The notes under the pieces were generated by a model. The model made no database searches, had not been told where the DNA came from, and worked only from the letters and a program-made list of their open reading frames with translations. From positions 8,282,873 through 8,346,872 of the forward strand of contig CM119264.1 in NCBI GenBank assembly GCA_051294375.1: a stretch of DNA of 64,000 nt, in the 5' to 3' direction. This DNA comes from Paraspadella gotoi. Lineage: Eukaryota > Animalia > Chaetognatha. Of the stretch, positions 17,366 to 59,400 are shown one piece after another. A program made the translations under genes and the position numbers. Within the stretch, counting starts at the first letter, position 1, and the number at the start of each line of letters is the position of its first letter.

Positions 17366-20099
17366 GAGATAGATATGGTTCTATGACAGTCATAAAGGTA
17401 CGGAGAGTTCTATGACAAGTTTCATTGATGCATATGGATTACCTCACCTCTCCCAAAATATTAATGAGTTCTTTTCAAGATTTTGTTTGACTGATCTATA
17501 CTCGGCACCATCTATCTTTTAAAAAGACAATTATTTAAATTGAAATCTTATATAAAAACAAAAAACTTTAAAAAACTTAATTATTAAAAAACTAAAAAAA
17601 AGCCCATCTTAAAATAAAATACAAACTAAAACAAAATAAAAATAAGGGCTGGATGAACAAGGGGCGCAAATTATAACATGTAAAGAAATAATTCTGGGTA
17701 AAACATGTAAAAACATTTGCATAATCTGGGATATATGTAAAATGCTATCTATATCTGGAATATGAAGTAAAAAACAATATTCAATATTCTGGTAAATATT
17801 TCAGTAGGATAAAGAAAATGGTTAATTTTTCAATAATTCTTGCAGACATATATGAGATGTAACATTATCTCTCAAAATAATGAAAAATTAGAGAAGAATG
17901 TGTCCGTGCAAAAAAGAAAAATACAATGCAAAAAAGAAAATTACAATGCAAAAAGAAAAATACAATTGCAAAAGAAAAAATACACGCAAAAGAAAAAGCC
18001 AAAAGAACATCAGAAATTTGTTATGGCTATTACTAAGACTATAAGACACAAATTTTAGAGAAAATGTGCTCAACACAAACGCTTTTAATTCGAAAATACG
18101 CAATAAAAAAAAATAAAAGAACATTTGTGCTCTACCCTGTATAAATTATTATAATATTCATATACATTTACAATTAGATTAAAAATTATATATTTAGGGT
18201 TAGTTTAGGGGGACAGGGTGAATAAATGTAAATATTTAATCTAAATGTAAATGTATATTTAAAATTGAGAAAAAAACGATCAGAGAGCAATGTTTTCAGC
18301 TTCAGAATAAAGAAGGAAGTGGAAAGAGGTAAGAGGGATAGGGAATGCATTACTATTAAAAAAAAAAAAAAAGTAATGGTGGATTCAAAAAACTCATTCG
18401 AGAGAAAAATGTGATATAACATGATACTCGTGGTAAAATACTTGTGTCGGTCAAAAAGTAAAAAAAATATTATCCAACAAATTACAAGATTTATCCATTG
18501 ATGAAGTAATACTTTTTTACTTTCTTTTCTTCTTTCTTTACTTGGGTCAAAGCTTTATCCAATTGATGGTAAATTATAAGGGAATTTATTTAATCCGTTT
18601 AATCAATTAAAAATTTTAATTTTCCCTGTTAAAAATCATTCTAGAATCTTTTTTTGTTTTTTTCGATCATTAGGATCAAAACTGTCTGGCAAATTTGCTA
18701 AATACGTTTTTATTTCTGGATAAATAATTGGATAAATCTTGTCTTATGAGTAAATAGAAAAACAACTAAAATAAAAAAAAACCCCTTATTTTATTCTTAT
18801 TCGCTCACCTTAACAAAAGTAAAAATAAATAAAAAAACCCCTCTAACCTAAACCCAATCCGCCCGCCAAACTCATCCTCCCCACCTCTTCCTCCTCGAAA
18901 ACGTGGCCCAACGGGCGACGGCGGTCGTCGGACTCCGCCTCCGCCACGCCGTCCGCCGCCACAGGCTTTGCGTTGCCTCCGCCGCCTCGCGACGCCGCCG
19001 CTCCCGCGCTCTCCCCGCCGCCGCTTCGCCCTTTGATAGTGACGAGGAGGACGAGAAGAGGAGGAAGACGGCGGCGCCCTCCGACTCCCGCTTGAGATGA
19101 GATGCTGTGGAGTAAAACAATTTAAAGTTTATGAGAGAATTTAAACTGAAAAACGAGAATGGAAAAGGAAGGGACAAGGAAAGAGCAAAAACGTAAGCCA
19201 TAGAGAGGTAATAGAGAGTAAAGAGGAGTATGGGTAGGGAATGAAGAAAAAGAATGAAGAATGAGTTAAGGAGAAATGAGAAAGAATCATTATCATCTCG
19301 ATTGACGCGGTTTATACTTATTTTTAACCAGGGTAAACTTTACACACGAACTCGATGAAGCTTACTTAATCGAATTTATCCGATCTCCGCGCTCACCTCC
19401 GGTCTCGTCGCCGCCTCCGCCTTCGCCGTCCGTTTTTAGAGAAACAAAAGTAATTGTATTTAGAATCAATTAAAAAAATATTTAATTTATCTTGTACACA
19501 TAAAAAAAATATTAGTAAAATTCTTTACAAGATGACGCATGTCGGCACGCACAATGACCAAGACGAAAAGCAACGATCCGATAAACGCGCTGACATAAAA
19601 TAAATATAAAAAGGAATTGGTTAGTAAAACGAAAATTGACAACTGAACACTACGTTCCTTACTGGAATCAGATCCCGTTTGGTAAAATAATTTGAAAACC
19701 ACCATTGCGTGGTTGGATTCCAAGCTCTGTAGATAGTTTGGTTTTCAAAGTATTAGATAAATATTTTTCTATACACTTACTAGTTATAGTTAACTTACTG
19801 TCTGTGCGTGTTGAGTGACCGGCGTCGGACTTGGCGCTCCCTCTTGTCGCCGTTTATACCTGTCTTCGTGGTCGTTGGTCGGACTTGTCTTCGTCGTTGT
19901 CCTCGGTCTCCCATTCCTTGTATCATTGGCGCTTTCCGCTCACAGGTTTTTGCAATTAGATGTAAAATATTGATATATTTAGGGTTTATGAGTGTAGGGG
20001 ACGAGTTAATAATAATAGAATTTAATCAAAATGAGTAATAATGTTATATGTATCCAGATGCGAACGAGAATAGAGGAAGCGAAGAGGAAAGCAGAGGCT

Positions 20100-21310
20100 G
20101 AAGTCTTGGAGAGGAACAACATATGATCAGGATTAAAGGAAGAAAATTATCGAATTAATTGATTGTTACTATGTTAACAAATAAATATAGTTAAAAAATT
20201 GACGTAACAGGAACTCAGTTATTCGGAGTTGTCTACATTTAGTGAAGTGTGATGTACCACAAGTCTTATGTAAATGGGACTGAGTAAAAGAGATTGTGTA
20301 ACGAGTATTAGATAATGTAAAGATTGCTCTACCGACCGATCGAGGACCGAAGAGAGCACTTTTGCGAAATGGTGTCGAGATAAAACAAAGATCATTAAAG
20401 AGGTTGGTTTCGACCAGTTTTCAATTTTTTTTAAGAGAGGAAAAAATTACGATTGGAGAAATAATATTTCGATTTTTTAACAGTACGACGGAAAGATGTT
20501 CATTCCCTATTTTCCTACATTACGATTGGAAAAGATGGAAACGGACCCCTGCAGAAATAGCATACGGAATGAGATAGATAGATAGATATGATAGATAGAA
20601 GGAGAGGCACAAGAGAGAGATGTGAGAAAGAGGAGAGAGTGGAGAGCTCAATATCTATTGCCAAATGTAAACCTTTGGTCTCGCCGCCCAAAGCATCAAC
20701 CCAATTATGAGGAAGAAGTCCGACTCTTCTCTCTCCTTTTCTCTTTCTCTCTTCTCTTCTCTCTCTCTCTCTCTCCTTCTCTCTCTCTCTCTCTCTCTCT
20801 TCTCTCTGTCTTCTCTCCCTCTTCTTCTTTCCTCTTCTGTACCTATTGACCCTCGAATTGAATAAAAAAGGCATAACCGAATGAGGATTGCGAACATACA
20901 AAAATCTACTCTACTTTAAAACTGCACAATGCCTGGGGCAGCTATTGGCCATATATTGCATCATGGATGTTCTCATATTAATGTCACTTATGATGCGTTC
21001 AGACAACTTTGTCACGGATATATGAAAATAGATCCTTTGTACTATTGACCATTACCATCCTATGGAGGTAAGATACATGAATATTTACTAGATCGTACTT
21101 AACTCTATCATACTTTCTACATTTTTTATCTTCGGCCTCATGTTAAGGTTTTCGGAGTAGAAAATATTCTGTGAGCGAACAAGAATCGCAGCATTTATTA
21201 CGCCTTTACGAATGTATCAGAATGGTTTTTCGTTGTAATACCGTAGTGGAAACGAGATCATAACGAATGCAGAGGATTGAACAGAGAATAGTCAAAAAAT
21301 GTTCGGGATA
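20100..21310 (+). pseudogene. Degraded PolB fragment (exo to pre-motif A) retaining intron 1, interrupted by an AG/CT-rich insert at 20570-20850
   Basis: Matches 36130-36970. Confidence 0.75.
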
Positions 21311-21364
21311 TTGTGACAATCGGGTCGGGATAAGTGGGGATCAAAAAAAAGAACAAATAAAAAA

Positions 21365-22119
21365 TTAAACGATCTTTTGGGGGGGCAGAAGTGGAAATGG
21401 GGGCGTTGTGGGGTGCGGACTCACTGGGGTTGGGAGGTCAAAATCACTGGCCCAGTGAGGAAGGTGGCAAATGCCAATTTTGCCTTCTTTTAACGACGAA
21501 GACTGGTCTCCGTCGTCTAAACTGAAATGTTTTTTTAAAAAATTCCTCCTTTTCCAAGGGATTAACTTATCACGATCCTCCACCGAATCTCGATTATCTT
21601 CGATTTGCGGTGGTGTAAGTCTAATTCCTCTGGAGGTTTTTTTCGTTTTGTTAAAAAGTTCGCGAGTTTTTTGTTCTTTTCATCCGATTTCTTCCTTCAA
21701 TTTTTTTCTTTTGTTCTTTCAAATTTATTGTTCTTGTCTCGCGGTAGCGAGTCTAAGACGCAGTAACGAGCATGTTACTGCGTTCAGCGTCTTTCGATAT
21801 AGATCACAACCGGTTGATCTGCGGTGCTTGGTTTTCCGACAAAAGGGGCTCCCAGCCCCCTTTGTCGTTTCCGTGTCGCCGCCGCTTGCGACCGCCACCA
21901 AGTTCGTGGATGGTTTGTCGCGCGAATAATTGTTGCCGCGACAGATGTCGCGGTGATGTGATAGAGGGTGGTGTGATTTTTTTGTGAACGCCCTCGGCGG
22001 CCGCCAGCTTGTAGTCGCAACGCTGGCGGGAGCGGCGAGGACGGATTTTTGTTGACTAGTCTCTGTCTTTTTATATATTAAACAATTTGACATAAGCAAA
22101 ATAAATGGTGGGCATCCAT
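21365..22119 (-). repeat. Paralogous ORF-L/ORF-R hairpin module, type C
   Basis: MDAHHLFCLCQI...QAGGRRG...ELGGGRKRRR, with the same stem-loop series. Inverted duplicate at 26117-26890. Confidence 0.75.
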
Positions 22120-22459
22120 TTGAAGATCGAGGAAAAAACAAAGCGAGAACGGTAAAGAGAGAATACAATTTGGGATGGTAGGAAACAAGGATGAAGAATC
22201 GGAGGACTTGGTCGGGGATAAACCGGGGATCAAAGTTGGGATAAAATTTTGAAAAATGAAAAAACGGAGAATCAAAAAGGATAGACGAGAAAAGAGCAAA
22301 AAGCGTAAAGCGAGCGATAGGTAGAGATAATGCATGCGGGGATAGGTGGGGACAAGGGTGAGAAAATTGGGGAATCGGGTCGGGGATAAGTGAACATTAA
22401 AAAGGGAAATGACGAATAACGAGGATGGAATAATAAACTAAAACTACGATATATGTACA

Positions 22460-23209
22460 TGGGGGTGGGGACTCACTGGGTCGGGAGGTAAAATCATGAC
22501 CCCAGTGAGGAAGTGGCAAATGCAATTTGCCCACATTTTTTAACTGACGAGACTCTGGTCTCCGTCGCTAAACCATTAAGGTTTTTATAATTTCATCCTT
22601 TTCCAGGAGGAAGGTGTCCCGATCCCTCCACCGCGATCTCAATAATTTTCGATTTGCGGTGGAGGAAGTCTAATTCCTCCTGGAGCGAAATTTTCATTTT
22701 TTTGAAAGTATTTCAGTTTTTCTCCTTTCCTTCAGTTCTGTTTTTTAATTTTTCGTTTCTGTTTTTAAATTGATTTGCTCCTGCCTCGCACTTGCCGAGT
22801 CTCAGGCGCAGTAACGAGCAAGTTACTGCGCAGTGTCTTTCGATACAGATCAACCGGCTACCGGTTGGATCTGTGGTGCTTGGGGTGACAAAGAGGCTCC
22901 ACGCCACTTTGTTTTGTTCGCGTCCGCCGCCGCTTGCGACGGCACCAAGTGGTGCGATCGGTTGTCCGGCGGCGTAAAAAATCTTGGTTATGAGGATAAC
23001 GTGGGAGGTGGGGTAGGCTTCGGTGTAGGGGGTTTGGGTTGAGGATTGACCTCGGCGTCGACGTGAAGATTGACCTCGGCGGCCGCCAGCTTGTGCTCGC
23101 AGTGTGCTGGCGGAGCGACGAGGTCGGGTTTTGGTTGTGCATAATTTCTCCTCCGTTTGAAAATAAGACAGATTTTACATAAGCAAAATGGATCGTGGTC
23201 TTTTTCCAT
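22460..23209 (-). repeat. ORF-L/ORF-R module, type F
   Basis: MEKDHDPFCLCKICLIFK..., same hairpins. Partial inverted duplicate at 25115-25745. Confidence 0.75.
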
Positions 23210-23745
23210 TTTGCTTATATAGTTTTCTGATTAGGGAAAAAAAGATTCGAAATTTATTAAAGGAGTAGGATTAGTTTCGAAATACTAACAATAAAATAAA
23301 CTAGCGCGTCGAGTAGCCCACAAATTATTGAGGTTCGTTTATTTCATACACTTTTTCTAAGATACTTTAAGACGATAATTTCGAGCGCTAAAATGCGAAT
23401 ATGATGCAATGAGGTCCGCAAGTACTCGCAAAATCATTTGTATACAAAAATCGTTATAAAAAATTTCATTCAAAATTTTTTTTTTTCTTTTTCTTTTTTC
23501 AAGTAATTCGCAATGAGGATTAAGCAAGGAGAATTTCTCAAGAATCAAAATAAGTGAGAGACCTCTTTCTTTTAAAAAAACCCGACCAATGATTGCCTCG
23601 TCGGTTTGAGGCATCCATTGGCTATGAAAATCGAAAAATCTGGGGGATCGCCCGGCAAGCGATCCGCGGGGAAACGTTCCTAAATAGAAACGAGAACATT
23701 GAGAATCCGTAAGAAAGAATCTTTATCGATAAAGAGAGAATTCAT
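23210..23745 (-). CDS. Adenain-like (clan CE) cysteine protease, copy directly after MCP
   Basis: MNSL.IDKIL start, HW catalytic His region, IFYNDF.IQND...TCGPHCIIF catalytic Cys. Frameshifted. Confidence 0.8.
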
Positions 23746-23761
23746 GTTTCTTTTTTTTTTT

Positions 23762-24372
23762 TTAATAATCCTAAACTTAGTTCGCGATTATAATTTAGGA
23801 GCAAATTGACGCTATATTCGGCGTACACTAATATTATTAACGAAGGGTTATCGAAGAATTTTTATAGTTTTAATTCTAATCTCGAACTACAGGTCTGTCG
23901 AACATGTGTGGTCTTCGGTAAAGACTGAACCTTCCCAGTATCGAGATAATAAAATGTTAATCTTTCACGTATTCGTCGTAACTTATAGGGCACGGTATGT
24001 AGTATTAAAGAAATGTGAAACTAAAGTATAATAAGCTCTTGATAATTTCCATTTGTAAAAGTTTAAGTTTTGAATGCCGTTTTTTTCCGGGCTTTTTACT
24101 CCGTCCAAACTCAAAGAGATCGATTCCAAATCGAAATGGTTAAAATTCAAACAGAGATTTGGCGATGTCCCGGAGAAACTGACTTTGTTTACGCGGATTA
24201 TTACCGTCTCTGGACGATTAGTTTTTGATAAAATTAAATTTTCTATATAGGACGCTCTTATGACCGCTAGGGTATTACAGTGGGGTCGAACCATAGAAAA
24301 CCGGGTAGGCATCATTATTCCTCCTTTTCGGTTATTTTTTTCTCAATGTTGAGCTTTAAAGATGGTAACATA
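23762..24372 (-). pseudogene. Polinton-type double-jelly-roll major capsid protein, C-terminal half
   Basis: Across frameshifts: IENLFYQ..RPETVII..V..SFSG....F.FNHFDLESISLSLDG...AYYTL...SRLEL.Y......LIILVYAEYSVNLLLNYNREL..DY*, the typical Maverick MCP C-terminus. The 5' half is replaced by a junction at about 24372. Confidence 0.8.
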
Positions 24373-26954
24373 ATAATTTTTAATTGAGGCAATGCAAAGA
24401 CTTACTGCTGCATGCAAATATATTATTAATTAAAATTTTTTTTAAAATGTTGAATTATGAAAAAAAATACCTGTTTCCTTCGAAATGGTGTCAGCAATTT
24501 CATATAAATTGTACAATTATAATTTCAATTCGTGAGAATTTTTGATTGCCTGAATTCTAAGGTTAAGGAATGAATTTCCCACTAAAAATTATTGATCCCG
24601 TCCTGAAGTTTCGCATCCCTCGCACCCTATGGCACGATAGGGTGCTTTGATATATAGATCATCAGGTCCAAATATGAAGACCTTATATTATGAGTGTCCC
24701 TGATAGGGCTTAATCCGTCGTCTGCGTTTGTCGTTGCTTGTCCTGTCCTCGCCGGGAATTTGTTTTACTAGATTTTTTAATTGCTTATGATAAAAGTAAA
24801 ATAATTACAATCAAAACGATTAAGGCGTTTGATGTTGCTATTAATCTTTTCATGTTATTCCCGACGAGGCGTCAGGTAGGCGGGTGTTCTTGTGCACCAA
24901 AGGAGGCCTTCGTCGGAGGCGGAAACGCCAATGACAAGAATGGGGAGGACGAGGACAACGACCACGAAGACAAGGACAACGACCACGAAGACAAGGACAA
25001 CGAAGACAAGGACAACGGCGACTCCGGCTCCTCAACGGCAGAAGTAAGCTAACTCATAACTAAGTATGTGTATTAGAAGAATATTTATCTAATACTTAAA
25101 GAGAGAGGATTTCACGTCGACGCCGAGGTCATCTCACCAAAACCCTACAACGCGAAGGCTACCGCACTTCCCCACGTTATCCTGCAATCAACAGCCAAGA
25201 TTTTTAACGCCGCCGCGACAAGCGATCGCACCAACTGGTGCCGGTTCGCAAGCGGCGGCGGACGGCGAAAACACAAAGTGGGGCTGGAGCCTCTTTGTCC
25301 ACCCAGCATACAGGATAAGCCGGTAAGCGCGGTTGGATCTGTATGCGAGGAAGACAGTGGCGCAGTCACTTGGCTCGTTTACTGCGCTGAGACTCGCAAG
25401 TGGCGAGGCAAGAGCAAATCAATTTAAAACCACAAAACGAAAAATTAAAAAGCAGAACTGGAGGAAAAGGAGGAAAAAACTGAAATACTTTCAAAAAAAT
25501 GAAATTCGCTCCAGGAGGAATTAGACTTCCTGCCACGCGAAATCGAAAATTATTGAAGATCGCGGTGGAGGTCGGGACACCTTCCTCTGGAAAGGATGAA
25601 ATTAATAAAAACTTTATTTTAAGCGAACGGAGACAGAGTCTTCGTCGTTAAAAATGTGGCAAAATTGCATTTGCCACGTTCTGACTGGGGTCACGTGATT
25701 TTTACCTCCCGAGCCCCAGTGAGTCCCCCCCCATGTACATATATCCGTAGTTTATTTTTATTCGGCATCTCGTTATTGTTCGTCATTTTTCCGCTTTTTT
25801 AATGTTCACTTAATCCCCGGACCGCGATTCCGGCCAATTTTCTGCAGCCCTTTGTTCCCCACCTATCGCATGCCAATATCTCTACGCTATCGCTGCGCTT
25901 TAGCTTTTTGGCTCTTTTCTCGTCTATCTTTTCTGGATTCTCCGTTTTTCGTCGAATTTTTTCAAAATTTTTTATCCCGACCCACTTGATCCCCGTTTAT
26001 TCCGCCGACCAAGTCCTCCGATTCTCTTCGATCCTTGTTTCCTAGCCAATGCCAATTGTTATTTCTCTCCTTTAACGCGTTCTCTCGCTTTGTTTTTTTT
26101 CGCCTCGATTCTTCAAATGGAAGCCGGCACCCATTCATTTTGCTTATGTCAATGTGTTTAATATATATAAAGAAGAGATTATGTCAACAAAATCCGTCTC
26201 GCACTCCCGCCAGCATTGGCGACTACAAGCTGGCGGCCAGCCGAGGGCGTTCATCAAAAAAATCACACACCGGCTGCATCACATCACCACCGGCGAGCAT
26301 TGGTCGCGGCAACATTATTACGGCGCGACACCCATCGCACCCACTTGGTGGGGTCGCGAAGGCGGCGGCGACCACGGGAAGCGACAAAGGGGGCTGGAGC
26401 CCGCTTTTGTCGGAAAAGCCAGCACCGGCAGATGCCACCGGTTCGGATCTATATCGAAAGGACAGCTGACGCAGTTAACATGGCTCGTTACTGCGTCTTG
26501 AGCTCGCTACGCCGGAGACAAGAACAATTAAATTTGAAAGAACAAAGAAAAAATTGAAGGAAGAAAATCGATGAAAGAACAAAAAACTCGAACTTTTTAA
26601 CAAAACGAAGAAAACGCCTCCAGGAGGAATTAGACTTCCTCCACGCAAATCGAAGATAATCGAGATTGCGGTGGAGGATCGTGATATTATCGCTTGGAAA
26701 AGGAGGAATTTTTAAAAACATTTCCAGTTTTAGCGACGGAGAACCAAGTCTTCGTGTTAAAGAAGGTGGCAAATTGCATTGTGCACCTGTCGCTCACTGG
26801 GGTCAGTGATTTTGACACTTTCCCAACCCCAGTGAGTCCGCCACCCACACCGCCCCCATTTCCACTTCTGCCCACCCCAAAAGATCGTTTAATTTTTTAT
26901 TTGTCCTCTTTTTTTTTTATCCACTTATCCCGGAACCCGATTGCTCAATTTCCC

Positions 26955-27850
26955 CAGAACATTTTTGACTATGTCTCGTTCAATCCATCTGGGCATTCGT
27001 TATTGAATCTCGTTTCCACTACGGTAATTACAAGCGAAAACCACTTCTGATTACATTTCGTAAAGGCGTAATAAATGTGCGATTCTTGTTCGGCTCAACA
27101 GATATTTCTACTCCGCAGAACTTTAACATGACGGCGAAGCTAAAAATGTGTAAACGTAATGATAAGCTTAAGTAACGCATCTAGGTAAATATTCCATGTA
27201 TCTTACCTCCATGGGATGGTTAATGTCAGATAGTAACGAAAGGATTATTTCATAATATCCGTGACAAAGTTGTCTGAACGCATCATAAGTGACATTATAT
27301 GAGAACATCCATGATGCAATATATGGCCAATAGCTGACGCCAGGCATTGTGTTTTAAAGTAGAGTAAATCTTTTTAGTATGTTGTAATCCTCTTCGGTTA
27401 TGCCTTTTTTATTCACTTCGTCCGTAAAATGCTAATTTGCCCAAGGAAGAGTCCGGTTCTCTCAATCTTTCCATGCGTAAGTAGGCAATAGGGAAATGAC
27501 ATCTTTCCGTCGATAATTAAATCGAAATATTTCTCATCGTAATGTTTTCTTAAAAAATTGAAAACTGGTTCGAACACCTCTTTATGATTTTTTTTATCTC
27601 GACAACCTTTCGCAAAAGTGCCTCTCCTTCGGTCTGCATCGTCGTAGAGACAATCTTACAATTAAAACTCGTAACAATCTTTTTTACTAGCCTTAAAAAG
27701 ATTGTGTAAACTCCATGAGAAATCGATAACTGTCGCTGTAGGTTTAAATTTTACATATTTTGTAACAAGTAAATTCAATTTATTGCATATTTTCTGCTTT
27801 CCGCGATCAAGTTTTCCTCCAGCGTCGCGCGCCTTCGTCCTTCTCATGTC
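26955..27850 (-). pseudogene. Inverted PolB fragment retaining intron 1
   Basis: Reverse complement of about 36100-36970. Confidence 0.75.
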
Positions 27851-28779
27851 ACTATCGGATACATATACATTTACATTTAGATTAAATATTTTATATTTAT
27901 TAACGCCGGTCCCCTACGCATAAACCCTAAATAGTATAATATTTAATCTAATTGCAAAAACTGTGATGCGAACGGCCAATGATGAACAAGCGATGGGGAA
28001 GACGAGGACACGAGCGAAGACAAGTCCGGCCAACGACCACGAGACAAGGACAACCGGCGACAATAGCGAGACGCACATTCCCAGGACCTCCGCTCCTCAA
28101 CGGCAGAAGTAAGGTTAACTCATAACTAGTTAAGTGTATTAGAGAATATTTGTATCTAATACTTTGAAAAACAAACTATCTACATGAGGCTTGGAAATCA
28201 ACCACGCAAATGTGGTTTGCAATTATTTACCACGGGATGCTGATTCAGTAGACGTAGTGGTATCAGTTGTCATATTTTCGTTTTTTACTAACAATTCTTT
28301 TTTTATTTANNNNNNNNNNNNNNNNNNNNNNNNNTTTATGTCAGCGCGTTTTATTCGGATCCGTCGCCTTCGTCATCGTCATCGGCGCCGTCTCCGACAT
28401 CGTCGTCTCCTTTGTAAGAATTTACTCTATTTTTTTATGTGTACAAGAGTACAATTAAATTATTTTTTAATTGATTCTAAATACAATTATACTTTTGTTT
28501 CTCTAGAAACGGGACGGCGAAGGCGGAGGCGGCGATGAAACCGGAGGCGGGAGCGGCGGAGATGGATAATTCGATTAAGTAAGTTCATCGAGTTTGTTGT
28601 GTAAAGTTTACTGGGTTAAAAATAAGTATAAACGCATCATGCGAGATGATAATGATTTTTCTCATTTCTCCTTAACCTCATTCCTCAATTATTTTTTCTT
28701 CATTCCCTACCCATACTCCTCTTTACTCTCTNNNNNNNNNNNNNNNNNNNNNNNNNGCGCCAAACTAAGCCAATGGATG

Positions 28780-31719: not shown

Positions 31720-32093
31720 CATTCTTACGGAAATTCTCCTTTGCTTAATCCTCACTTTGCGAAATACTTGAAAAAAGAAAAAGAAAAAAAAAAAATTTTT
31801 GATTGAAATTTGTATAACGATTTTTTGGTTTACAAAATGATTTTCGGCGGTACTTGCGCACCTCATTGCATCATATTCGCATTATTTAGCGCTCGAAATA
31901 TGATCTTAAAGATATCTTAGAAAAAGTGTACTGAATAAACGAACCTCATAATTTGTGGTACTACTGTACGCCCGCTAGGGTTTATTATCTGGTTCAGTAC
32001 TCTCTCACCAAACCTCCAATCCCTACTCCCCTCTCCTACATAACATCTCCGGACACTCTTTTTTTTTCCCTAATCAGAAACTATATAAGCAAA
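31720..32093 (+). pseudogene. Protease 3' part leading into module copy A
   Basis: SYGNSPLLNPHFAKYLKK...TC.PHCIIFA..., running into LIRNYISKMEKD. Confidence 0.65.
32078..32090 (+). promoter_or_regulatory. TATA-type motif AAACTATAWAAGC shared by element genes (also about 33386, 4309, 15338)
   Basis: The same 13-mer lies 30-100 nt upstream of three unrelated ORFs. Confidence 0.55.
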
Positions 32094-32930
32094 ATGGAAA
32101 AAGACCACGATCCATTTTGCTTATGTAAAATTTGTATTTTCTTCAAACAGAAAATATGTTGAAGAAAAACCGACCTCTTCGCTCCCGCCAGCACTCGAGA
32201 GCAAAAGCTGGCGGCCGCCGAGGTCAATCTTCACGCCACTCCCTACGCCGAGGTCAATCCTCAACCCAAACCCTACGCCGAGGTCAATCCTCACGCCAAA
32301 GCCTACGCCGAGATCAATCTTCACACCAAACCCTACCCCACTCCCCACGTCACCCTCAATCGGCCCAAGATTTTTTACGCCGCCGCGACAACCGATCGCA
32401 CCAACTTGGTGCCGGTCGCAAGCGGCGGCGGACGCGAAGACAAAGGGGGCTGGAGCCCCTTTTGTCACCCCAAGGTCCACAGATCCAACCGGTAACCCGG
32501 TTGGATCTCTATCGAAAAACACTGACGCAGTAACGTCTTCGTTACTGCGTCTTAGACTCGCAAGTGCGAGACAGGAGCAAAATTATCTCCGAACTCAAAA
32601 CTCAAACTTAAAAAGGAAATAAACGAAAAAGAGGAAAAACTAAGATTTTTCAAAGACCATGAGAAATCTCTCCAGGAGGATTTAGACTTCCTCCACCGCA
32701 AATCAAAGATTATCGAGATTGCGGTGGAGGATCGGGACACCTTCCTGGAAAAGGATGAAATGTTAAAAACTTTTAAATTTAGCGACGGAGACAGAGTCTT
32801 CGTCGTTAAAAAAAGGTGGCAAAATTGCATTTGCCACCTTCCTCACTGGGCTCAGTGATTTCGACCTCCCGATCCCAGTGAGCCCCCCCCCCGTCCCTTC
32901 CACCCCCCCTCCCCCCTGTACATATATTCG
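32094..32930 (+). CDS. Long overlapping ORF (ORF-L): HxxFCLCxxC motif, Pro-rich linker, coiled coil, conserved C-terminal domain; two apparent frameshifts
   Basis: MEKDHDPFCLCKIC...SWRPPR...KGAGAPFV..DPTGNPVGS..LLRLRLASARQEQ...LQEDLDFLHRKSKIIEIAVEDRDTFLEKDE...FSDGDRVFVVK..KIAFATFLTG.SDFDLP. Many third-position synonymous differences from B copies in the C-terminal part (cgc/cgt, atc/att, acc/act, aag/aaa, gat/gac). Confidence 0.7.
32156..32533 (+). CDS. Arg-rich basic protein (ORF-R), candidate viral core/DNA-condensing protein
   Basis: MLKKNRPLRSRQH..KAGGRRG...LGAGRKRRR.RRQRGLEPLLS..GPQIQPVTRLDLYRKTLTQ*. The ATG position is conserved in paralogs, and four differences from the copy at about 55839-55892 are all synonymous in this frame. 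Confidence 0.65.
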   Translation: MLKKNRPLRSRQHSRAKAGGRRGQSSRHSLRRGQSSTQTLRRGQSSRQSLRRDQSSHQTLPHSPRHPQSAQDFLRRRDNRSHQLGAGRKRRRTRRQRGLEPLLSPQGPQIQPVTRLDLYRKTLTQ

Positions 32931-33490
32931 TAGTTTAATTTTTATTCGCATCATTTTTCCTCGTTATTCTATTTCCCTTTTTTGATCCCCACTTATCCCC
33001 GACCCGATTCCCCAATTTTCTCACCCTCGTTCCCCACCTATCCCCGCATGCATTATCTCTTACCTATCGCTCGCTTAACGCTTTTTGCTCTTTTCTTGTC
33101 TATCCTTTTTGATTCTCCGTTTTTTCATTTTTCAAAATTTTTATCTCCAACTTTGATCCCCGTTTATCCCCGACCAAGTTCTCCGATTCTCTCATCCTGG
33201 TTTCCTACCAATCCCCAATTGTATTCTCTCTTTACCGTTTATCGCTTTGTTTTTTTTCCTCGATTATTCCCCTTCCTTCTCGATTCTCCGCTATTCCGAT
33301 TTTCCCCCCCCCACTACGGTTTTTAAAAAAAAAAATTTTTTTTCCACTAAAGTTTTAAAAAATGTTGTTTTTTTTTCCCCTTCGAAAACTATATAAGCGT
33401 CTAATCTTTTGTAAATATTTCATTATCTCAGATTCGAAAAAGACAAATCGATAATCTGAAGAGAGACACGACCAACAAAAAAAAAACACG

Positions 33491-34317
33491 ATGTTCAGCG
33501 ATGGGACATTTCATTTGTCCGAAAAATGTCGCATAAATTTAATAAACTCGTTATATTCTTACTTCGTGATTGTTGCCAAGGGAGGTGCGTCGTGCGCCTG
33601 TTCTCGAATCTCTCTGTCGTTGGGGGAGTGGCGTAGTCTCGCGTCGGCGTTGGACAACCTGGAGGCGGAATTGGAATCGTTAGAGAATCGATTAAAGAAA
33701 CCAGAACTCGGGCTGGAACCGAAAATTCGTTTTCTCTCTCATCAAATCTCCATCGCTGTTCACGTGAATAACGTTCGCGGCAAACTGTCGCCGGTCGTTT
33801 CTCTCTGCTTTCTCGATCAAGAAGGAGCCAAGGGCGCCTGCAGAACGCAAGATTCTGGCGTTTCTCTGACTCCGAGCGAATTTCGTGCCTTGAAATTCCT
33901 CTCTAGTTCGATCACTCGTCACATTTCGGAAAACGCGATTCGAACCTTCGTGGTGCGATCGGAAAACCGCAAGAACGTGGTCTCGGACATTTTGCAGATT
34001 CTCGAGTCGTTCGTCGAAGGCAAGTCGTCCTTCGGCTTGCGACTGAATCTGGCTCTCATTAATCAGCTCGAAGAGAATGATCCCAAAGTAGATGCAGATT
34101 GACTTTCGTCTGTATGAATACGGAATATAACTGAGAATATTGCATAATTTCACAAGAAAAGATCCTGATGCCATCGCTGAAATCAGAATCTCATACGAAA
34201 GACATTTTCGCCTATCATCGCTATTATGCAAATGGGTTTTTTTGCATACGACCAACATCTTCGTCTATCCATAGGATTTTTTTTTTGCATATGACACGGA
34301 TCACTGCTTTTTTCAGC
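33491..34317 (+). CDS. Tandem PC4/p15-like (ssDNA-binding fold) protein; probably continues past the 34102 stop through a frameshift
   Basis: Two PC4-type signatures, RISLSLGEWRSL and SGVSLTPSEFRAL, each after a beta-rich stretch. TATA motif at about 33387. Confidence 0.6.
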
Positions 34318-34417
34318 NNNNNNNNNNNNNNNNNNNNNNNNNNNNNNNNNNNNNNNNNNNNNNNNNNNNNNNNNNNNNNNNNNNNNNNNNNNNNNNNNNN
34401 NNNNNNNNNNNNNNNNN

Positions 34418-37400
34418 AAGATGAAAATGATGAAATAACCATAATAGGGTTTTTTTTTGATCAAATATCGAGGGTTCTTCACGAATCTTCCAACATATCG
34501 GAAATTTTGGACGAATGTTTCGGTAGATTGATAATTGAAATCGAGGACAAGACGACCACCGGTTCGAATCTCGTTTTTTTAGAAATAGAAAAGACAGATT
34601 TGACCATTTTAAAGATTAGTTCGGCCTTTAACGTGGGTTGTTATCAAAGTTCGGAACCGGAACTGAGATCAAAACGCGCCACCATCAATTTACCCTCGAC
34701 AAAGACCCAAGATGATTGCGTCAAAATGTCAATTTTGGCTTGTTTATTTCACACCGTAGTGATAAACCCGAGCAGGCGGTCTTGCTACGAACGATATATC
34801 GAGAAAATAAATATGGGAACCTTGAAAAATCCGTTGACGATAAATGATATTTCGACTTTGGAAACCCTAAACCCAGATTTGAGCATTAACATTTACCAAT
34901 ATACTAGGAAAAAAACAAAAATGAAAAAAAATGGTCCCGCCTCATTTTTTTTCCATTTAGAATTTCGGGGAAAAATAATTTACAGGGAATAAAAATATGC
35001 AATTTGCTCTTGTTACCCAAAAAAGAAATGGAGGAAAGGCGACATTGCGTTAGCGTGATCAATTTAAGTAGACTCGTGACGTCACAATACTCTCGTCACA
35101 AAGGATCTGCTTTCGTTTGTTTAAATTGTCTTTGTTGTTGTCGATCTCAGTTTGTTTTGGAGAGACATAGGAGACTTTGCGATGAGAAGAATATCAAACA
35201 AAATATTTGTTTTCCTCTCAAAGGAACTAAATTAAAGTTTGAAAAATACTATGCCAAATTTTACCAGGATGCGGTTATTTATGCAGATTTTGAAACTCAG
35301 ACGGAAAGGAGAAATTTCGTCGAACCTCTTCCAGATCCGGAATTAACCTTTGTTCCGGAAAAAATAAAAACAAAATATCCTTGGTGTCGCTTAAAGAGCC
35401 ATTTGAATCATTTAGAAAAAAATAAAGGATGTAAAAGTTGCTCATTCGCTAAGCCATGCGTTAAAATATCTAAAAATAGTGAAATATTGGCCGAATTAAA
35501 ACCCATAGCCTTTTGTTACATAGTTTCTACCACTTTCGATCATCCCGATTACGATATTCCTAAATATTACGTGGGATTAGATGCGGGAATAAAATTCGTA
35601 GAAATGATTCGCGAAGAGATGATTAGATTAAACGAGATTCTCAATAAAAACGAAAATATGATCATGACGGAGCAGCAAGAATTTGAGTTTCAAAACTCTA
35701 CTCATTGTCACGTTTGCGGAAAACCGTTTTTAAAAGGAAATGACAAGTCGGAAATGATTAAAACTAGGGATCATAATCATATTACCGGGTTGTATAGGGG
35801 TAGTGCTCATCAAGCTTGCAACCTGGCTTACGTGAACCCGAATCGCATCTCTTTGTTATTTCACAATACCCAAAAGTTCGATGGTCATTTATTGCTAACT
35901 TCTATAGCCGAAAAAAATGCCAATTATGCCGTAAAGACCATAGCTAATTGCATTCCTAAAAGCACTCAAGAGTTTATTACTTTCGAAATCATTTTCAATT
36001 GTGATTTTTGTAAAGATAAGAAAGCGAAGGGAAAAGATCCCGAATCGAGCGACGAGAGTTCGAGCGACGATGACGACGACGATAGCGATGATAGCGACGA
36101 TGAGAAAGACGAAGGCGGTGAGCTGGAAAGGAAAACTTGATCGCGGAAAGAGAAAATATGAATAAATTGAATTGTACTTGTTACAAAATATGTAAAATTA
36201 AACTACAGGACAGTTATCGATTTCTCATCGGAGTTTACACAATCTTTTAATGGCTAGTAAAAAGATTGTTACAGTTTAATTGTAAAGATTGTCTCTACGA
36301 CGATGAACGAAGAGAGGCACTTTTGCGAAAGGTGTCGAGAAAAAAAAATCCTAAAGAGGTGTTCGAACCAGTTTTCAATTTTTTGAGAGAAAATTACGAT
36401 GAGAAATATTTCGATTTAATTATCGACGGAAAGATGTCATTTCCCTATTCCTACATTACGATGAAAGATTGAGAGAACCGGACCTTCCTTGCAAATTAGC
36501 ATTTTACGACGAATTGAATAAAAAAGGCATAACCGAAGAGGATTACGAACATACTAAAAAGATTTATCTACTTTAAAACTCAATGCTTGGGTCAGCTATT
36601 GGCCGTATATTGCATCATGGATGTTCTCATATTAATGTCGCTTATGGATGCGTTCAGACAACTTTGTCACGGATATTACGAAATAGATCCTTTGTACTAT
36701 CTGACATTACCATCCATGAGGTAAAATACACGAATATTTTTACTGGATCGTACTTACTTAACTTATCATACTTTACTACTTTTTAGCTTCGCCGTCATGT
36801 TAAAGTTTTCGGGAGTAGAAATATCTCTGTTGAGCGAACAAGAATCGCACATTTATTACGCCTTTACGAAATGTATCAGAGGTGGTTTTTCGGGTTGTAA
36901 TTACCGTAGTGGAAACCGCGATCAATAACGAATGCGGAGGAATTGACGAAGAATAGTCAAAAATGTTCGTTCAATTTATATTACGATTTTACAAACTTGT
37001 AAGTAATGATCCGAGCTCAAAACCGTAATAATAATAATAATAAAATAAAAAATATAAATACAGATACGGTTATTGTCAAACCGAATATTTTCCCACGGGC
37101 GACTTCTATTCCTTTTCCGAACCGGAGTGCCAAAACTTGTTGACCGAGATTTTGGAAAAGCGAATTTATGACACGTGGACAGGTTTCGAAAAAAAAGGGT
37201 AAGCGTTCTTCGATGAAATATTGTTTTTAAGTTTTTAACCTTTTCTCTCGATTTTCTTTCTTTCGTTTGTGTTTTATTTTTTTCTTCTTACAGATTTATA
37301 TTAGAAATTAAATATACTATTCCGGAGAAAGTAAAGATATTTTATAGCGATTATCCTTTATTAACTACTAAGAGAAAAGTTTTAAAGTCGGAACTGAGTT

Positions 37401-37537
37401 TTTTACAATTAGAACTGATTGAAAAATATAAACAAAATATCGACGCATCTCCCAGACTGATTGCCGATTTATCGGACGGAGATCATTACTTTATACATTA
37501 TATGAATCTTAAATTAGTTTTAAGCTTAGGATACGAA
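34418..37537 (+). CDS. Polinton/Maverick (adintovirus-like) protein-primed DNA polymerase B with endonuclease VII-like insert; spliced, frameshifted, C-terminus missing
   Basis: Motifs in the expected order: TTTGSNLVFLEIE...SKRATINL...DDCVKMSILACL; HCVSVINLSRL...CLNCL...LERHRRLC; ExoI YADFE; CHVCGKPF...RDHNHITGLYRGSAHQACNL (EndoVII); ExoII FHNTQKFDGHLL; DSYRF; GKMSFPYSY; ExoIII YCIMDV...IDPLYYLTLPS; CIRGGFS; motif A YYDFTNLYG; GFILE...SDYPLL; HYFIHYMNLK. The sequence stops at the N gap at 37538. Confidence 0.93.
36721..36786 (+). other. Spliceosomal intron 1 in PolB (66 nt, phase 2)
   Basis: gtaaaa...ttttag. Removal gives LTLPSM-S-FAVMLKFSGVEISLL, matching the family motif. Confidence 0.88.
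36999..37063 (+). other. Spliceosomal intron 2 in PolB (65 nt, phase 2), splitting motif A
   Basis: gtaagt...atacag. Removal gives YYDFTN-L-YGYCQ. Confidence 0.92.
37199..37293 (+). other. Spliceosomal intron 3 in PolB (95 nt, phase 2)
   Basis: gtaagc...polypyrimidine tract...ttacag. Removal gives FEKK-G-FILEIKYTIP. Confidence 0.92.
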
Positions 37538-37547
37538 NNNNNNNNNN

Positions 37548-38122
37548 ACACTAATATTATTAATGAAGGGTTATTCAAAGAATTTTTATAGTTTAATTCT
37601 AATCTCGAACTACAGGTCTGTCGNNNNNNNNNNNNNNNNNNNNNNNNNNNNNNNNNNNNNNNNNNNNNNNNNNNNNNNNNNNNNNNNNNNNNNNNNNNNN
37701 NNNNNNNNNNNNNNNNNNNNNNNNNNNNNNNNNNNNNNNNNNNNNNNNNNNNNNNNNNNNNNNNNNNNNNNNNNNNNNNNNNNNNNNNNNNNNNNNNNNN
37801 NNNNNNNNNNNNNNNNNNNNAAAGTATAATAAGCTTCTTGATAATTTCCATTTGTAAAATTTAAGTTTTGAATGCCGATTCCAAATCGAAATGGTTAAAT
37901 TCAAACAGAGATCTGGCGATGTCTCCGAGAAACTGACTTTGTTTTACTTGCGCGATTATTACCGTCTCTGGACGATAGTTTTGATAAAATAAATTTTCTA
38001 TATAGGCGCTCTTTTGACCGCTGGGTATTACGTGGGGTCGAACCATAGAAAACCGGGTAGGCATCATTATTCCTCCCTTTTCGGTTATTTTTTCTCAATG
38101 TTGAGCTTTAAAGATGGTAACA
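37548..38122 (-). pseudogene. Second copy of the MCP C-terminal fragment (gapped)
   Basis: Near-identical to 23826-24372, with the same 5' junction. Confidence 0.75.
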
Positions 38123-38429
38123 TAATAATTTTTAATTGAGGCAATGCAAAGACTTACTGCTGCATGCAAAATATTATTAATTAAATTTTTTTTAAATTTG
38201 GAATTATGAAAAAAAATACCTGTTCCTTCAAATGGTGTCAGCTAATTCATTAATAAGATGACAATATAATTTCAATTCGTGAGAATTTTTGATTTGCTCT
38301 GACTTCTAAGGTTAGGATATGAATTCCTACTAAATTTAGTTGATCCCGTCCGAGTTCGCATCCCTCGCACGCGTAGTGCACATAGGGTGCTGTTGATATG
38401 ATATAGTCATATAGCTACTGATTTGAGGT

Positions 38430-39632
38430 CCCCAAATGAAGTATCCGTGTATTCTGGGTTGTTGTTACGTTGCTGTTGCATGTCTCGCCCCGGGGAATTT
38501 GTGTTTACTAGATTTTTTTAATTGCTTATAGATAAAGAGTAAAATAATTACAATCAAAACGCTTAAGGCGTTTTGAATTGTTGCTATTATCATTTTTCAA
38601 TGTTATTCCGACGAGCGTCAGGTAGGCGGGTGTTCCCGGTGGACTGGAAAAAAATTGGAAAATTGAAAACATTTTTTATTTGTATTTCTTGATTAATTTA
38701 TAATTTGTTATCATTAAATCATTTATGCTGATGTGTTTGTCTCTTGGGTGTGTCTGATGCCGCCATTGTTGTTTTGTTCTCTTGTTTGGCCTTGTTTTTC
38801 AGACCTGTAGTTGAAAAAAATAATTTTGTTACTTAGCATGAAAAATATGTTTTTATTTTCATATATTTTAATAAATAAATAATTGATTATTATTTGATTA
38901 ATTATTAATTGTTTATATGAATCACCTTGTGGTGTTGATGTGGAGGCTCTACATTTGAGGTGTCTTGTTGTTGTTGTTGTTTTCTTGAAGGTAGCTTTTC
39001 TGTGTTTTTTCTAGTGTGAGACTTTTCGCCATATATCAGAGATAAAAACAATTTTTTATAATTAAATAATTAATGTATTATTTATTAATTTATTTTATTA
39101 TAATTTATTTATCAATTAAATCACCTTGTGGAATGTGGAACGATTCTATCTTTGTTTGTGGTTCCTTTTGGAATTTGAAGTCGTTGTCCTATACGCAAAT
39201 ATTGAAAACAATTTTTTTTTTTAATAAATAATTAATGTATATTGATTAATTTTTATTAATGTTTTATCATTAAAGCACCTTGATGCAGTTGATTCGATTA
39301 TTGGTTCAACGGATTGTTGTTCTTTGCTGTTGTTTTGCCATTCTGGTGGTGCTGCCATCGAGAATCTTGTTTTGTTGTTTTCCGGCGAAGATGTTCTTAT
39401 GATGTGTCCATGGGGTTGTCGCCCTCTCGTGTCGTCTCGTCGTTGCCATTTTATTAAGTTGAAGATGAAAAATAAAATAGATTGAAAGTTTATATTCGAG
39501 ATTTTTTTTCAAACGAAAAAAAAAAAATCATTTTACCTTAGTAGTTAAAAAATGGACCTTTGGTGGGTCCACGACGCCAGCAACCCCATGCAAAAGCAAA
39601 AAAAAGGAAAAGAGACAGATGGTGGTGTTCAT
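38430..39632 (-). CDS. Multi-exon mucin-like type I membrane protein (signal peptide, Thr-rich exons, TM); partial copies at 5043-5490 and 16069-17047 (+)
   Basis: Exon 1 MNTTICLFSFFFAFAWG; exon 2 WATTTTTRATTPWTP...; short Thr-rich exons separated by similar gtgatt...ag introns; last exon ALSVLIVIILLFIYKQL. Confidence 0.62.
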
Positions 39633-41789
39633 TTTTATGATCGTTGACGATGTTGATGACGACCGAGTGCGGTGCGGTGAAGTGAAGTGAAGGAGTCCCA
39701 GAGTTTGAAAATTTTGAGATAAAGAAANNNNNNNNNNNNNNNNNNNNNNNNNTCACAAGAAAAGATAAAAGAAAGAAAGAAAAGAAAGTCAAAACAAAGA
39801 GTAGACAATGGATCAGTCTGCAGTTCTCCTTCTTCGCCGTGCCGCACGCCCCCTCCTCACCGCCCGTTGGGTTTAACCCCCGCGTCACCGCCCCCTCCAA
39901 TGCCAATTCCCCCGGATCTCCTCGCTTCCTTCCTCCATCATGCATCCTCAACTGCTCATGTAAATCCCTCCCATTGTGCGCATCCATGTCGTCGTTAATC
40001 ACACTTGGCGCACCAGTTGCGATTGCAGTTTCCCATAAACCCATCTTCTGGTATCTGAGGAGGTAGCTTCATTGCTACGGGGATTCCTAAAAACGCTTGT
40101 TTCGATCAAACTTTGATTCAAGTCAATTGACCTTTTTATCGCGATCGGCTGAACGACGGAACAACACGACAACTGCCAGAGACGCCAATAAAGTGCCCCA
40201 GTCCAATGTGAACGATTGGAAATTCATGTATATATGTCAAGACTGTTCAACATTTGACCTGATTTGATATCTACTTATATCAACACACCCCCTATTGTGC
40301 CCTTAAACCAAAGAGACCGTGCGAGGGATACGCAACTTATCATGGATCCGACAGAACATAACTAAATTTTTATGAAGTTGGGACACATTTCATGCGAGAT
40401 CAAACCTTTGAAATAACCCTTTACAGAAGAGTTTGTAGTAAAGTCAACGGAGGTGCAATCAAAATTCTTCTTCAAAGAGATATTTTGAAAAAATATTTTG
40501 TTTCAATTTATTACTATGAGAATACTGAGCTGTATATACCATTTCTTGGAAGGGAAACTTAGTATTTTTTTTGCATAATTGTTACATTTAAAAAAATAAC
40601 TTTAGAATTTAATAAATCGACACTCTATTTGCAACTTTCGGCGAAGAGCAGTATCTTTCGGCCACTCTCAATTAAAATGTATTATTTCAGGTTTAGCCGG
40701 TTTCAATCACGACAATCCAATGGTTGTAAGACCTATAGTAGATCCTGCTGCATTTGTGTTCGTTGAGAAAGAAAGTTGCTGTTGATAATGTGACAGATAA
40801 CGAAGCTCTATCATTTCTGTTCGTCGTCGTCGGTTACTACGACGCGGCCATAGTTTGATTCCTATTGTTGAGTACTTTCAATTCTAATCGGCACTCCTTT
40901 AATAAGCAATCTCTCAAGATCTATTTTTTTTTCCTTGATCACTAATATAGAACCCATCTTTGGTATCTGAGGAGAGTGAGCTTCATGCTACGAAGTCACG
41001 AAGTCACGAAGTAAGAATATAACGAGTTTATTAAATTTATGNNNNNNNNNNNNNNNNNNNNNNNNNNNNNNNNNNNNNNNNNNNNNNNNNNNNNNNNNNN
41101 NNNNNNNNNNNNNNNNNNNNNNNNNNNNNNNNNNNNNNNNNNNNNNNNNNNNNNNNNNNNNNNNNNNNNNNNNNNNNNNNNNNNNNNNNNNNNNNNNNNN
41201 NNNNNNNNNNNNNNNNNNNNNNNNNNNNNNNNNNNNNNNNNNNNNNNNNNTTTTAAAAACCGTAGTGGGGGGAAAAATCGGAATAGCGGAGAATCGAGAA
41301 GGAAGGGGAAGAATCGAGGAAAAAAAACAAAGCGAGAAAGGGTAAAGAGAAAATACAATTGGGGATGGGTAGGAAACAAGGATGAGAGAATCGGAGGACT
41401 TGGTTGGGGATAAACGGGGATCAAAGTTGGGGATAAAAATTTTGAAAAAAATGAAAAAACGGAGAATCAAGCAAAGAGAGACGAGAAAAGAGCAAAAAAG
41501 CGTGTAAGCGAGCGAGTAGGTAAGAATAATGCTGCGGCGGATAGGTGGGGAACGAGGGTAGAAATATGTGGGATCGGGTCGGGGATAAGTGGGATCATAA
41601 AGGGAATGACATAACGAGGAAAAATGAAGCGAATAAAAACTATCAAAACTAGTGCGATACTATGTATCAGGGAGGGGGACGAGGTTGGGGAACGGAGGTT
41701 GGGGATAATTGGCAATATCGGTCGGGGAGAAGTGGAGGATCAAAACAAAAAAAGACATAAACAATTAAACAATTCTTTCTTGGTGGTGG

Positions 41790-42575
41790 GTGGGGGAGTC
41801 GGGGGGGGGAAGAAGTTGGGGACGAAGTGTAAATTGGGGGGGGGGGGGGACTCACTGGGATCGGAGGTCGAAATCACTGACCCCAGTGAGGAAGGTGGCA
41901 AATGCAATTTTGACACCTTCTTTTAAGACGAAGACTCTGTCTCCGTCGCCTAAAATTAAAGGTTTTTACCACTCGTCTTTTTCAGGAGGAAAGTGTCCCA
42001 GATCCTCCACCGCGTCTCAATATATTTGATTTACGGTGGAGGAAGTCTAATTCCTCCTGGAGAGACTCTCGTTGTCTTCAAAAAATTTTTAGTTTTTTTG
42101 TCTTTCCAAGACTTTCCTTTTTTAAATTTCTCATTTTGTTTTTTAAGTGCAACTGTTTCTTGTCTCGCGCTTGCGAGTCTTTAGGCGCAGATAACGAGGC
42201 AAGTTACTGCGCCAGTGTCTTCGAATACAGATCAACCGGCTTACCGGTTGGATCTGCGGCGCCTTGGTGCGACAAAGGGGCTCCAGCCCCTTTTGTTTCG
42301 TTCGAGGTCGCCCCGCTTGCGACCTCCAGCCAAAGCTGGCGCATTGGTTGTCGCGGCGTATTAGCCGCGACCGGCATGTCGCGGCGATGGATAGTTGAGC
42401 GATGGCGGGAGAAAATGTTTTTTTGATAAAGCGGCCATCGGCGGCCGCCAAGCCCTGTGTATTCGAGTGCTGGCGGGAGCGGCGTCGTTGGGTTTTCTTA
42501 TCGACATGTTTCTCTTCGTTTATAGATTAGACATAATCGAGCATAAGCAAAATGGATAGTGAGTCTTTATCCATT
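41790..42575 (-). repeat. ORF-L/ORF-R module, type B (also 44254-44910 and 48585-49403)
   Basis: MDKDHHPFCLC...GPQIQPVSRLDLYRRTLAQ*; hairpins with variant loops. Confidence 0.75.
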
Positions 42576-43108
42576 TTGCTTATATAGTTTCTGATGAGGG
42601 GAAAAAAAGTCACAAAATTTAATTAAAGTAGTAGGATTAGATTCGAGAAGTACTAACAATAAAATAAACTAGCGCGTCGTAGTACCAAATATGAGGTTGT
42701 TTATTTCATACACTTTTTCTAAGATATCTTTAAGATCGTAATTCGAGCGCTAAAATAATGCGAATATGATGCAATGAGGTCGCGCAAGTAGCCGCAAAAT
42801 CATTTTGTAAACAAAATCGTTATAAAAAATTTCATCAAAATTTTTTTTTCTTTTTCTTTTTTCAAGTATTTCGCAAAGTGAGGATTGAGCAAAGGAGAAT
42901 TTCCGTAAGAATCAAAAATAAGTGAGAGACCTCTTCTTTTAAAAAACCCGACCAATGATGCCTCGTTTCGGTTTGAGGCATCCCATTGGCTATGAAAATC
43001 GAAAATCTGGGGATCGGCCGCAAGCGATCCGCGGAAAACGTTCCTAAAAAGAAACGAGAAACATGAGAATCCGTAAGAAAGAATCTTATCGATAAAGAGA
43101 GAATTCAT
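42576..43108 (-). CDS. Adenain-like protease, copy B1
   Basis: MNSLFIDKILSYG...HWSGF...IFDSYGNSP...YND..LQND.AATC.PHCII. Confidence 0.82.
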
Positions 43109-55599: not shown

Positions 55600-56045
55600 T
55601 CTTCCTTCTCCAGGGAAAGACATCGCGATCCTCCCCGCAACCTCCGAGTTATTTTTTGATTTGCGGTGGAGGAAATCTAATTCCTCCTGGAGAGATTGTT
55701 CGTTTTTTCAAAGTATTTCCAGTTTTTTCCGATTTTTTTTGTCTAGTTCATTTTTTTATTTCTTTGTTTACGAGAGATTTCATGTTCCCGTCTCGCCCTA
55801 GCAGATTTGGGAGAGTTGTAGACGCAGTAATGTTCCCGTTACTGCGTCAACGTCTTTCGATACAGATCCAACCGGGTTACCGGTTGGATCTGCGGGCCTT
55901 GCTGCTCTGACAAAAGGGGCTCCAGCCCCCTTTGCCGTTTGCGTGTTCGTTGCCGCTTGCGGCCGCCAATTTGTTCCAATCGGCGGTCGCGGCGGCGTGG
56001 CAATCGATTGCGCGCCAACCGTTTGGATAAATGACCTCGGCGTCT
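55600..56045 (-). repeat. ORF-L/ORF-R module, type D (also 55220-55325, 58780-58995, 62260-62945, 63840-64000)
   Basis: EQIGGRKRQRTRKRQRGLEPLLSEQQGPQIQPVTRLDLYRKTLTQ*. Downstream of LEKDE it joins a different 3' region. Confidence 0.72.
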
Positions 56046-56057
56046 ACCCGGTATATA

Positions 56058-59116: not shown

Positions 59117-59400
59117 TTATTTTTTGGCTAGTTCCTCTTTCAACTTTTGATTTTCTTGGCGTAGGTTCAATTGTTTGCGTCTCGCCGTAACGAGTTGAAG
59201 ACGCAGTAATGTATCCATTACTGCGTCAAGGTCTTTCAATATAGATCCAACCGGGTTATCGGTTGGATCTGCGGCCCTTGGCTGCGGTCTGACAAAAGGG
59301 GCTCCAGCCCCCTTTGCCGTTTCTTTATTCGCCGCCGCTTGCGACCGCCAACTTGTTGCAATCGGCGGCGCCGGCGACCGCCAACTTGTTATGGTCGATG
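59117..59400 (-). repeat. ORF-L/ORF-R module, type E (partial)
   Basis: TSWRSQAAANKETAKGAGAPFVRPQPRAADPTDNPVGSILKDLDAVMDTLLRLQL...KLKEEL. Confidence 0.7.

Follow-up and report, generated by a model that had tools for sequence, protein, structure and literature searches.

Polintons or Mavericks, also described as polintoviruses and adintoviruses, are the closest known counterparts of the locus presented here, sharing with it a protein-primed family B polymerase with an endonuclease VII insert, long inverted repeats and a double jelly-roll capsid gene, of which a fragment lies here on the strand opposite the polymerase. The locus differs from them in the three candidate GT..AG introns of its polymerase gene, and integrase, ATPase and protease were not found in the window, i.e., the whole 64-kb stretch of Paraspadella gotoi DNA that was analysed. 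Intact vertebrate Mavericks are described in the available passages of PMC8097293 as having intronless ORFs, and the accessible part of a nematode Maverick study (10.1101/2022.07.12.499685) reports intronless core genes, with introns in cargo genes only. Endogenous mavirus-like elements (EMALEs) and the protist Polinton-like viruses are likewise integrating, capsid-encoding DNA elements with terminal repeats, and they differ from the window in being stated, in the excerpts available, to be intronless or to contain self-splicing group I introns only: EMALE genes are given as lacking introns (PMC8547959) and cryptophyte elements as having group I introns only (PMC12220804).

The nearest precedent is the introners of dinoflagellate Maverick-Polinton-like elements (PMC11957031 / PMC12166617), which are also spliceosomal-type introns in Polinton-like elements and occur in about 25% of the classified viral elements (PMC11957031). 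According to the available sections of these sources, the dinoflagellate introns are repeated mobile families acquired mostly after integration, whereas the three candidate introns of the window are mutually unrelated. The accessible text of PMC8502044, PMC11296320, PMC5803895, PMC11161782, PMC5718144, PMC6431247 and PMC11244446 yielded no relevant passage on introns, and in the accessible portions of the open full-text literature no Polinton polymerase with inherited spliceosomal introns was found to be described.

The polymerase gene was placed at 34420-37623 (+) by tblastn and profile matches and is of the kind that characterizes Polintons/Mavericks. The Pfam matches to Endonuclease_7 (E 7e-4) and DNA_pol_B_2 (E 0.002) did not reach the cut-off. 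The gene is in pieces, with its start and 3' end in N gaps; similarity reaches ~37600, just before motif B, and then enters an N gap, with motifs B and C lost. Three inserts interrupt it on the same strand, all in phase 2. Insert 1 (36721-36786; 66 nt, GTAAAA..TTTTAG) lies in a conserved YxTxPxLxW stretch before the polymerase domain, insert 2 (36999-37063; 65 nt, GTAAGT..TACAG) within polymerase motif A, and insert 3 (37199-37293; 95 nt, GTAAGC..TACAG), whose 3' tract is long and T-rich, where a GxxxExDLxYP stretch begins. Each contains stops in all three frames. With the split codon written as X, the flanks of the inserts align without gaps to P0001, the Corynactis coral adintovirus PolB, at approximately residues 777, 869 and 906, and no target-site scar or lost codon was found at the junctions in this alignment.

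Every frame-compatible, stop-free deletion around each site was scored against the protein. For insert 1, the 8 top-scoring of 692 deletions were all 66 nt long, the GT..AG one ranking 7; the GT..AG cut of insert 2 ranked 2 of 601. That of insert 3 ranked only 73 of 692, because similarity upstream is weak, and a rival donor at 37175 scored about equally; the donor at 37199 has the better consensus and leaves no gap against P0001. All three inserts carry the extended U2-type donor and acceptor consensus in register with the protein. T-rich tracts were detected in introns 1 and 3 and an A-rich one in intron 2, and intron 1 alone has a TTAAC, 29 nt before its end. The GC content of the inserts is 22-27% vs 36-42% in three of the four flanking exons; the fourth exon (27%) is as AT-rich as the inserts.

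The original prediction of GT-AG inserts of 66, 65 and 95 nt, all in phase 2, inside a Polinton-type polymerase is borne out by the gap-free flanks, by the chance estimate given below and by short-read contigs, and the register and GT..AG signals also support its reading of them as spliceosomal introns. The flanks are in register once the inserts are removed, as judged by P0001; the exons between the inserts are not clean, and several frame breaks in 36127-36998 had gone unmentioned. We consider it likely that the gene belongs to an integrated Polinton (Maverick), as its polymerase, and that the three inserts are ordinary spliceosomal introns which the host would remove.

Nine public sequencing runs contain the stretch, none of them on record as RNA, and contigs of four runs were placed on 33400-37537. 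Contigs of X1 span introns 1 and 2 and cover both ends of intron 3, and X8 spans introns 1 and 3; since short-read contigs span or cover all three, the inserts are not assembly artefacts. No contig joint skips an insert; X8, whose type as RNA is a guess and which also covers non-coding flanks, was counted neither way. Separately, one X1 DNA contig joins across 37294-37380.

The reading frames of the window break repeatedly over 36127-36998. At least 10 small indel differences from the window within 36127-36580 are common to at least 3 of the 4 runs, and at least 7 of them to all 4, so most of the breaks between 36127 and 36998 look like assembly errors; the assembly is error-rich at 36127-36580, and ORF calls in the window are therefore unreliable. 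Unlike these breaks, a frame change at 34908-34992 (+), in the N-terminal part of the polymerase and within homopolymer runs, is real, being unchanged and gap-free in the X1 and X5 contigs. An intron was considered as its cause and rejected, as no GT..AG intron fits the sequence; it may be a mutation or a case of recoding. The present polymerase copy is probably damaged or dead.

A fragmentary copy with at least one real frame break could be a dead fossil in which random insertions look intron-like by chance and were never spliced; the available part of PMC8097293 reports that Genewise labels large insertions in decayed Mavericks as 'introns'. We regard such an origin as highly improbable. With the length fixed and a slide of 4 bases allowed, GT..AG was found at 2% (0.02) of random places in the window, which gives ~8e-6 for three in-register pairs, and the chance of GTAA..YAG is 6e-4 per insert. 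The scar-free junctions, with no codon lost, also speak against random insertion.

The surroundings of the polymerase were analysed for other Polinton genes. A double jelly-roll major capsid protein gene fragment at 37864-38112 (-) faces the polymerase and was detected with a profile of 7 locus ORFs (E 4.5e-7 and 3e-8), whose member L030:6012-7346, from a metagenome locus discussed below, scores 0.99 to DJR-like clusters. The profile also matched a second copy of the capsid fragment at 24004-24282 (-). A GT..AG stretch at ~38150-38210 in the capsid region was rejected as an intron, since the open frame runs through it. The left arm of an inverted repeat, a candidate terminal repeat, occupies 31721-33569 (+), its outer end adjoining an N gap, and an X8 contig departs from the stretch at 33569. 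The right arm at 41004-42912 (-) is 80-100% identical by segment and has an N gap inside. Polintons are further characterized by a 6-bp target-site duplication and a length of 15-20 kb. The arms flank the polymerase, the capsid fragment and, upstream of the polymerase, a PC4-like ORF (33491-34102, +) whose start lies in the left arm; the repeat that forms the arms has many further occurrences in the window. The PC4-like assignment is a lead only (Atlas 0.84-0.86, PF02229 on 21-53% of members, recognition below threshold), and the ORF had no Pfam match and no homologue by sequence search. Neither a retroviral-type integrase nor a packaging ATPase or adenovirus-type protease was matched by Pfam (33 + 127 frames) or by profiles from 33 loci; the window contains 16 N gaps and many indels, so these genes may have escaped detection.

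The element is most likely a Polinton remnant rather than a domesticated gene, because the capsid fragment lies beside the polymerase and between long inverted repeats. The original prediction had also allowed for domestication. On such a reading, the polymerase would be a single-copy host gene derived from a Polinton that gained its introns as host genes do. Over the polymerase, X1 and X5 assemble into long contigs without branches, in keeping with a low copy number, and the apparent assembly origin of most frame breaks would be in line with a preserved gene. Against this stand the capsid fragment, the inverted repeats and a nest of repeats around the polymerase, the frame change seen in the X1 and X5 contigs, and the lack of a close orthologue among 1.84 billion proteins, where the best match has ~35% identity over the full query. 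The gene is thus probably not domesticated, and we consider this origin of the introns quite unlikely compared with introns carried by a Polinton.

Several further features of the window were observed. The frame at 3-251 (+), repeated near 11664, ends in a SOCS box (PF07525, E 1e-7), which fits an animal. An apparent multi-exon low-complexity gene at 38690-39540 (-), with relatives near 4569-5490 and 15600-17039, has repeated short exons ending in AAG|GT, A-rich introns and no Pfam match. The region 56043-62300 consists of a 2.8-kb tandem unit, 97% identical, that contains a 2-kb palindrome.

Two partial, indel-rich copies of the polymerase with insert 1 were detected elsewhere in the window. 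The copy at 20854-21305 (+) has not retained the acceptor AG, and the copy at 26957-27856 (-), its inverted partner, has retained both intron ends. Only intron 1 is duplicated, because both copies stop at the equivalent of 36969. Among the contigs of the 4 runs, none supports the junction of the 27-kb copy or matches this copy more closely than the main one; the contigs placed on it are those of the main copy and continue into motif A, not across the copy's own junction. The two copies have 25 differing columns in common against the main copy, and a genuine second copy is possible, since some of these also occur in short-read contigs. The copies do not bear out the proposal that intron 1 is kept with substitutions at ~21068 and ~27205: the 21-kb copy lacks the AG, the 27-kb copy has no contig of its own, and evidence of selection was not found. 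The inverted pair to which these copies belong (19213-28731, centred at ~24 kb) shows 76-84% identity and numerous one-base indels, and it could be an artefact of long reads.

P0001 is the nearest named protein to the window polymerase, at 28% identity, and the closest relatives are ENA metagenome ORFs with a zinc-finger-like insert common to the window's polymerase. A quick tree search covering 70 of the 185 eligible rows grouped the window polymerase with these relatives (SH-aLRT only 94). All of them fall short of full length, and several, from separate assemblies, stop at an identical residue. Of ~235 proteins, near-duplicates counted, 35 continue through motif A, and the end of 3 falls exactly on the intron-2 codon; at the protein level, these 3 are the close relatives P0204 and P0115 and an unrelated mayfly model, P0020. 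In P0204 and P0095, the sequence continues uninterrupted across the intron-1 site, again at the protein level, which suggests that intron 1 is younger than the relative group. Ends at motif A can be plain mutations, because P0087 stops there and its cluster mate P0189 is full length, and donor-like tails did not clearly set truncated relatives (34 of 95) apart from simulated frameshifts (63 of 240). Independently, P0169 and P0174 contain in-frame low-complexity stretches with intron-like starts and ends, at sites where the window has none.

An unbroken polymerase is common, as in 21 of 27 IMG/VR loci one frame covers the polymerase to its end; the polymerase frames of L004, L020, L021 and L024 are split. 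Scans of viral contigs with the window ORF, P0005, P0008 and an alignment of the close relatives, as well as a metagenome scan with that alignment, gave no confirmed locus, so any intron positions in common with the closest relatives are read from protein ends only.

Starting from P0008, a protein ending at motif A, six loci were found in JGI metagenomes (L028-L033), which represent a second intron-bearing Polinton family. Candidate GT..AG introns in phase 0 were found at all 14 junctions examined in 15 junction scans, a duplicate region of L030 being counted once per junction. The intron in motif A (DAN|NLYG) was found in 6 of 6 loci (108-317 nt), that in motif B (KKL|ANSVFG) in 5 of 5 examined (82-425 nt; the second junction of L031 lay outside the scan), and that at ILEL|SKF in 4 of 4 examined (192-234 nt; the third junctions of L029 and L031 lay outside it). 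Across the 4 loci that were compared, exon 2 keeps a length of 489 nt and exon 3 one of 213 nt, both stop-free and 75-97% identical; the identity of the introns is 18-79%, and their lengths range from 82 to 425 nt. Integrase, protease and capsid are all encoded in L030. By exon and intron comparison, the pattern is that expected if the introns are spliced and under selection, in elements that look intact, and these introns appear to be inherited and old.

The P0008 family resembles the window in its polymerase type and in having three candidate GT..AG introns, each within a conserved motif in the polymerase half, no introns being present in its first 828 residues; it differs in that all introns are in phase 0 and the frames are otherwise open. 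In motif A, the intron of this family precedes intron 2 of the window by 5 nt. Unlike the mobile introns described in the available sections on the dinoflagellate elements, those of this family are fixed in position and diverged in sequence. The two intron sets probably arose by independent gains, because the family is distant from the window polymerase in the tree and has no intron position in common with it. As side observations, ARAGORN called a tRNA-Ile(GAT) within the third polymerase intron of L032 (4419-4490) and L033 (6051-6122), with two further tRNA calls elsewhere in L032; the L030 motif-A intron has two tRNA-like units in tandem, for which ARAGORN made no call; and L030 4846-5975 (-) encodes TATA-binding protein (PF00352, E 5e-19) and TFIIB (PF00382, E 2e-9) domains beside the integrase and capsid genes.

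These comparisons bear on whether the window's introns could be recent insertions of introners or other small transposons into an already integrated copy, never inherited by replicating copies. The dinoflagellate elements offer a precedent, as the accessible text of PMC11957031 describes introners mostly acquired after integration, and the uninterrupted intron-1 site of P0204 and P0095 agrees with a young intron 1. The repeated family of similar introns that marks introners was not seen: the three inserts match neither each other nor anything else in the 64-kb window, in a search too coarse to recover even the indel-rich copies. The ends of the relatives P0204 and P0115 at the intron-2 codon also speak against recent insertion, as does the apparent age of the P0008-family introns. 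Recent insertion is therefore unlikely, in our opinion, and inherited spliceosomal introns are preferred.

Intron-bearing polymerases are apparently recurrent and not unique to the window. The suggestion of an intron-gaining virus lineage holds in a wider form, with a distant family having its own three introns and close relatives that look intron-like at the protein level, and does not hold as the property of one lineage. Host RNA polymerase II would transcribe the element in the nucleus, the major spliceosome would remove the inserts from the transcript, and inserts in conserved motifs would persist only where splicing is precise. Polintons replicate from DNA to DNA without a reverse-transcribed stage. 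An intron once gained would for that reason be passed to later copies and rarely lost, and gains probably happened more than once, because the distant family has three introns at different bases. All six introns known from DNA are in conserved motifs of the polymerase half; targeting to motifs is not established, since detection is easiest in conserved motifs. A broader proposal, which we put forward as tentative and rather doubtful, is that Polintons repeatedly and independently gained spliceosomal introns in or beside the catalytic motifs of the polymerase, motif A being interrupted at up to three different bases, that selection kept them, that a large share of such elements is invisible to ORF surveys, and that replication is gated by the host spliceosome.

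The expectation that ORF-based searches would miss this element agrees with survey design, as far as the available sections describe it: a protist survey used a gene caller made for prokaryotes on the ground that endogenous viruses 'do not contain introns' (PMC10120064), and in a survey of nematodes and of eukaryotes at large, a polymerase frame had to reach 900 residues to be retained (PMC10748475). Such surveys would overlook spliced Polintons or class them as decayed, and counts of intact elements and trees would therefore be biased.

Taken together, Polintons are likely not always intron-free. The window copy alone is a poor exemplar, and the apparently intact P0008 family is a better one. 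The intron positions may serve as markers for descent and horizontal transfer, and the elements provide a small natural system for the study of intron gain. If the broader proposal is true, gating by the spliceosome would be a switch tying Polintons to nuclear, host-controlled expression.
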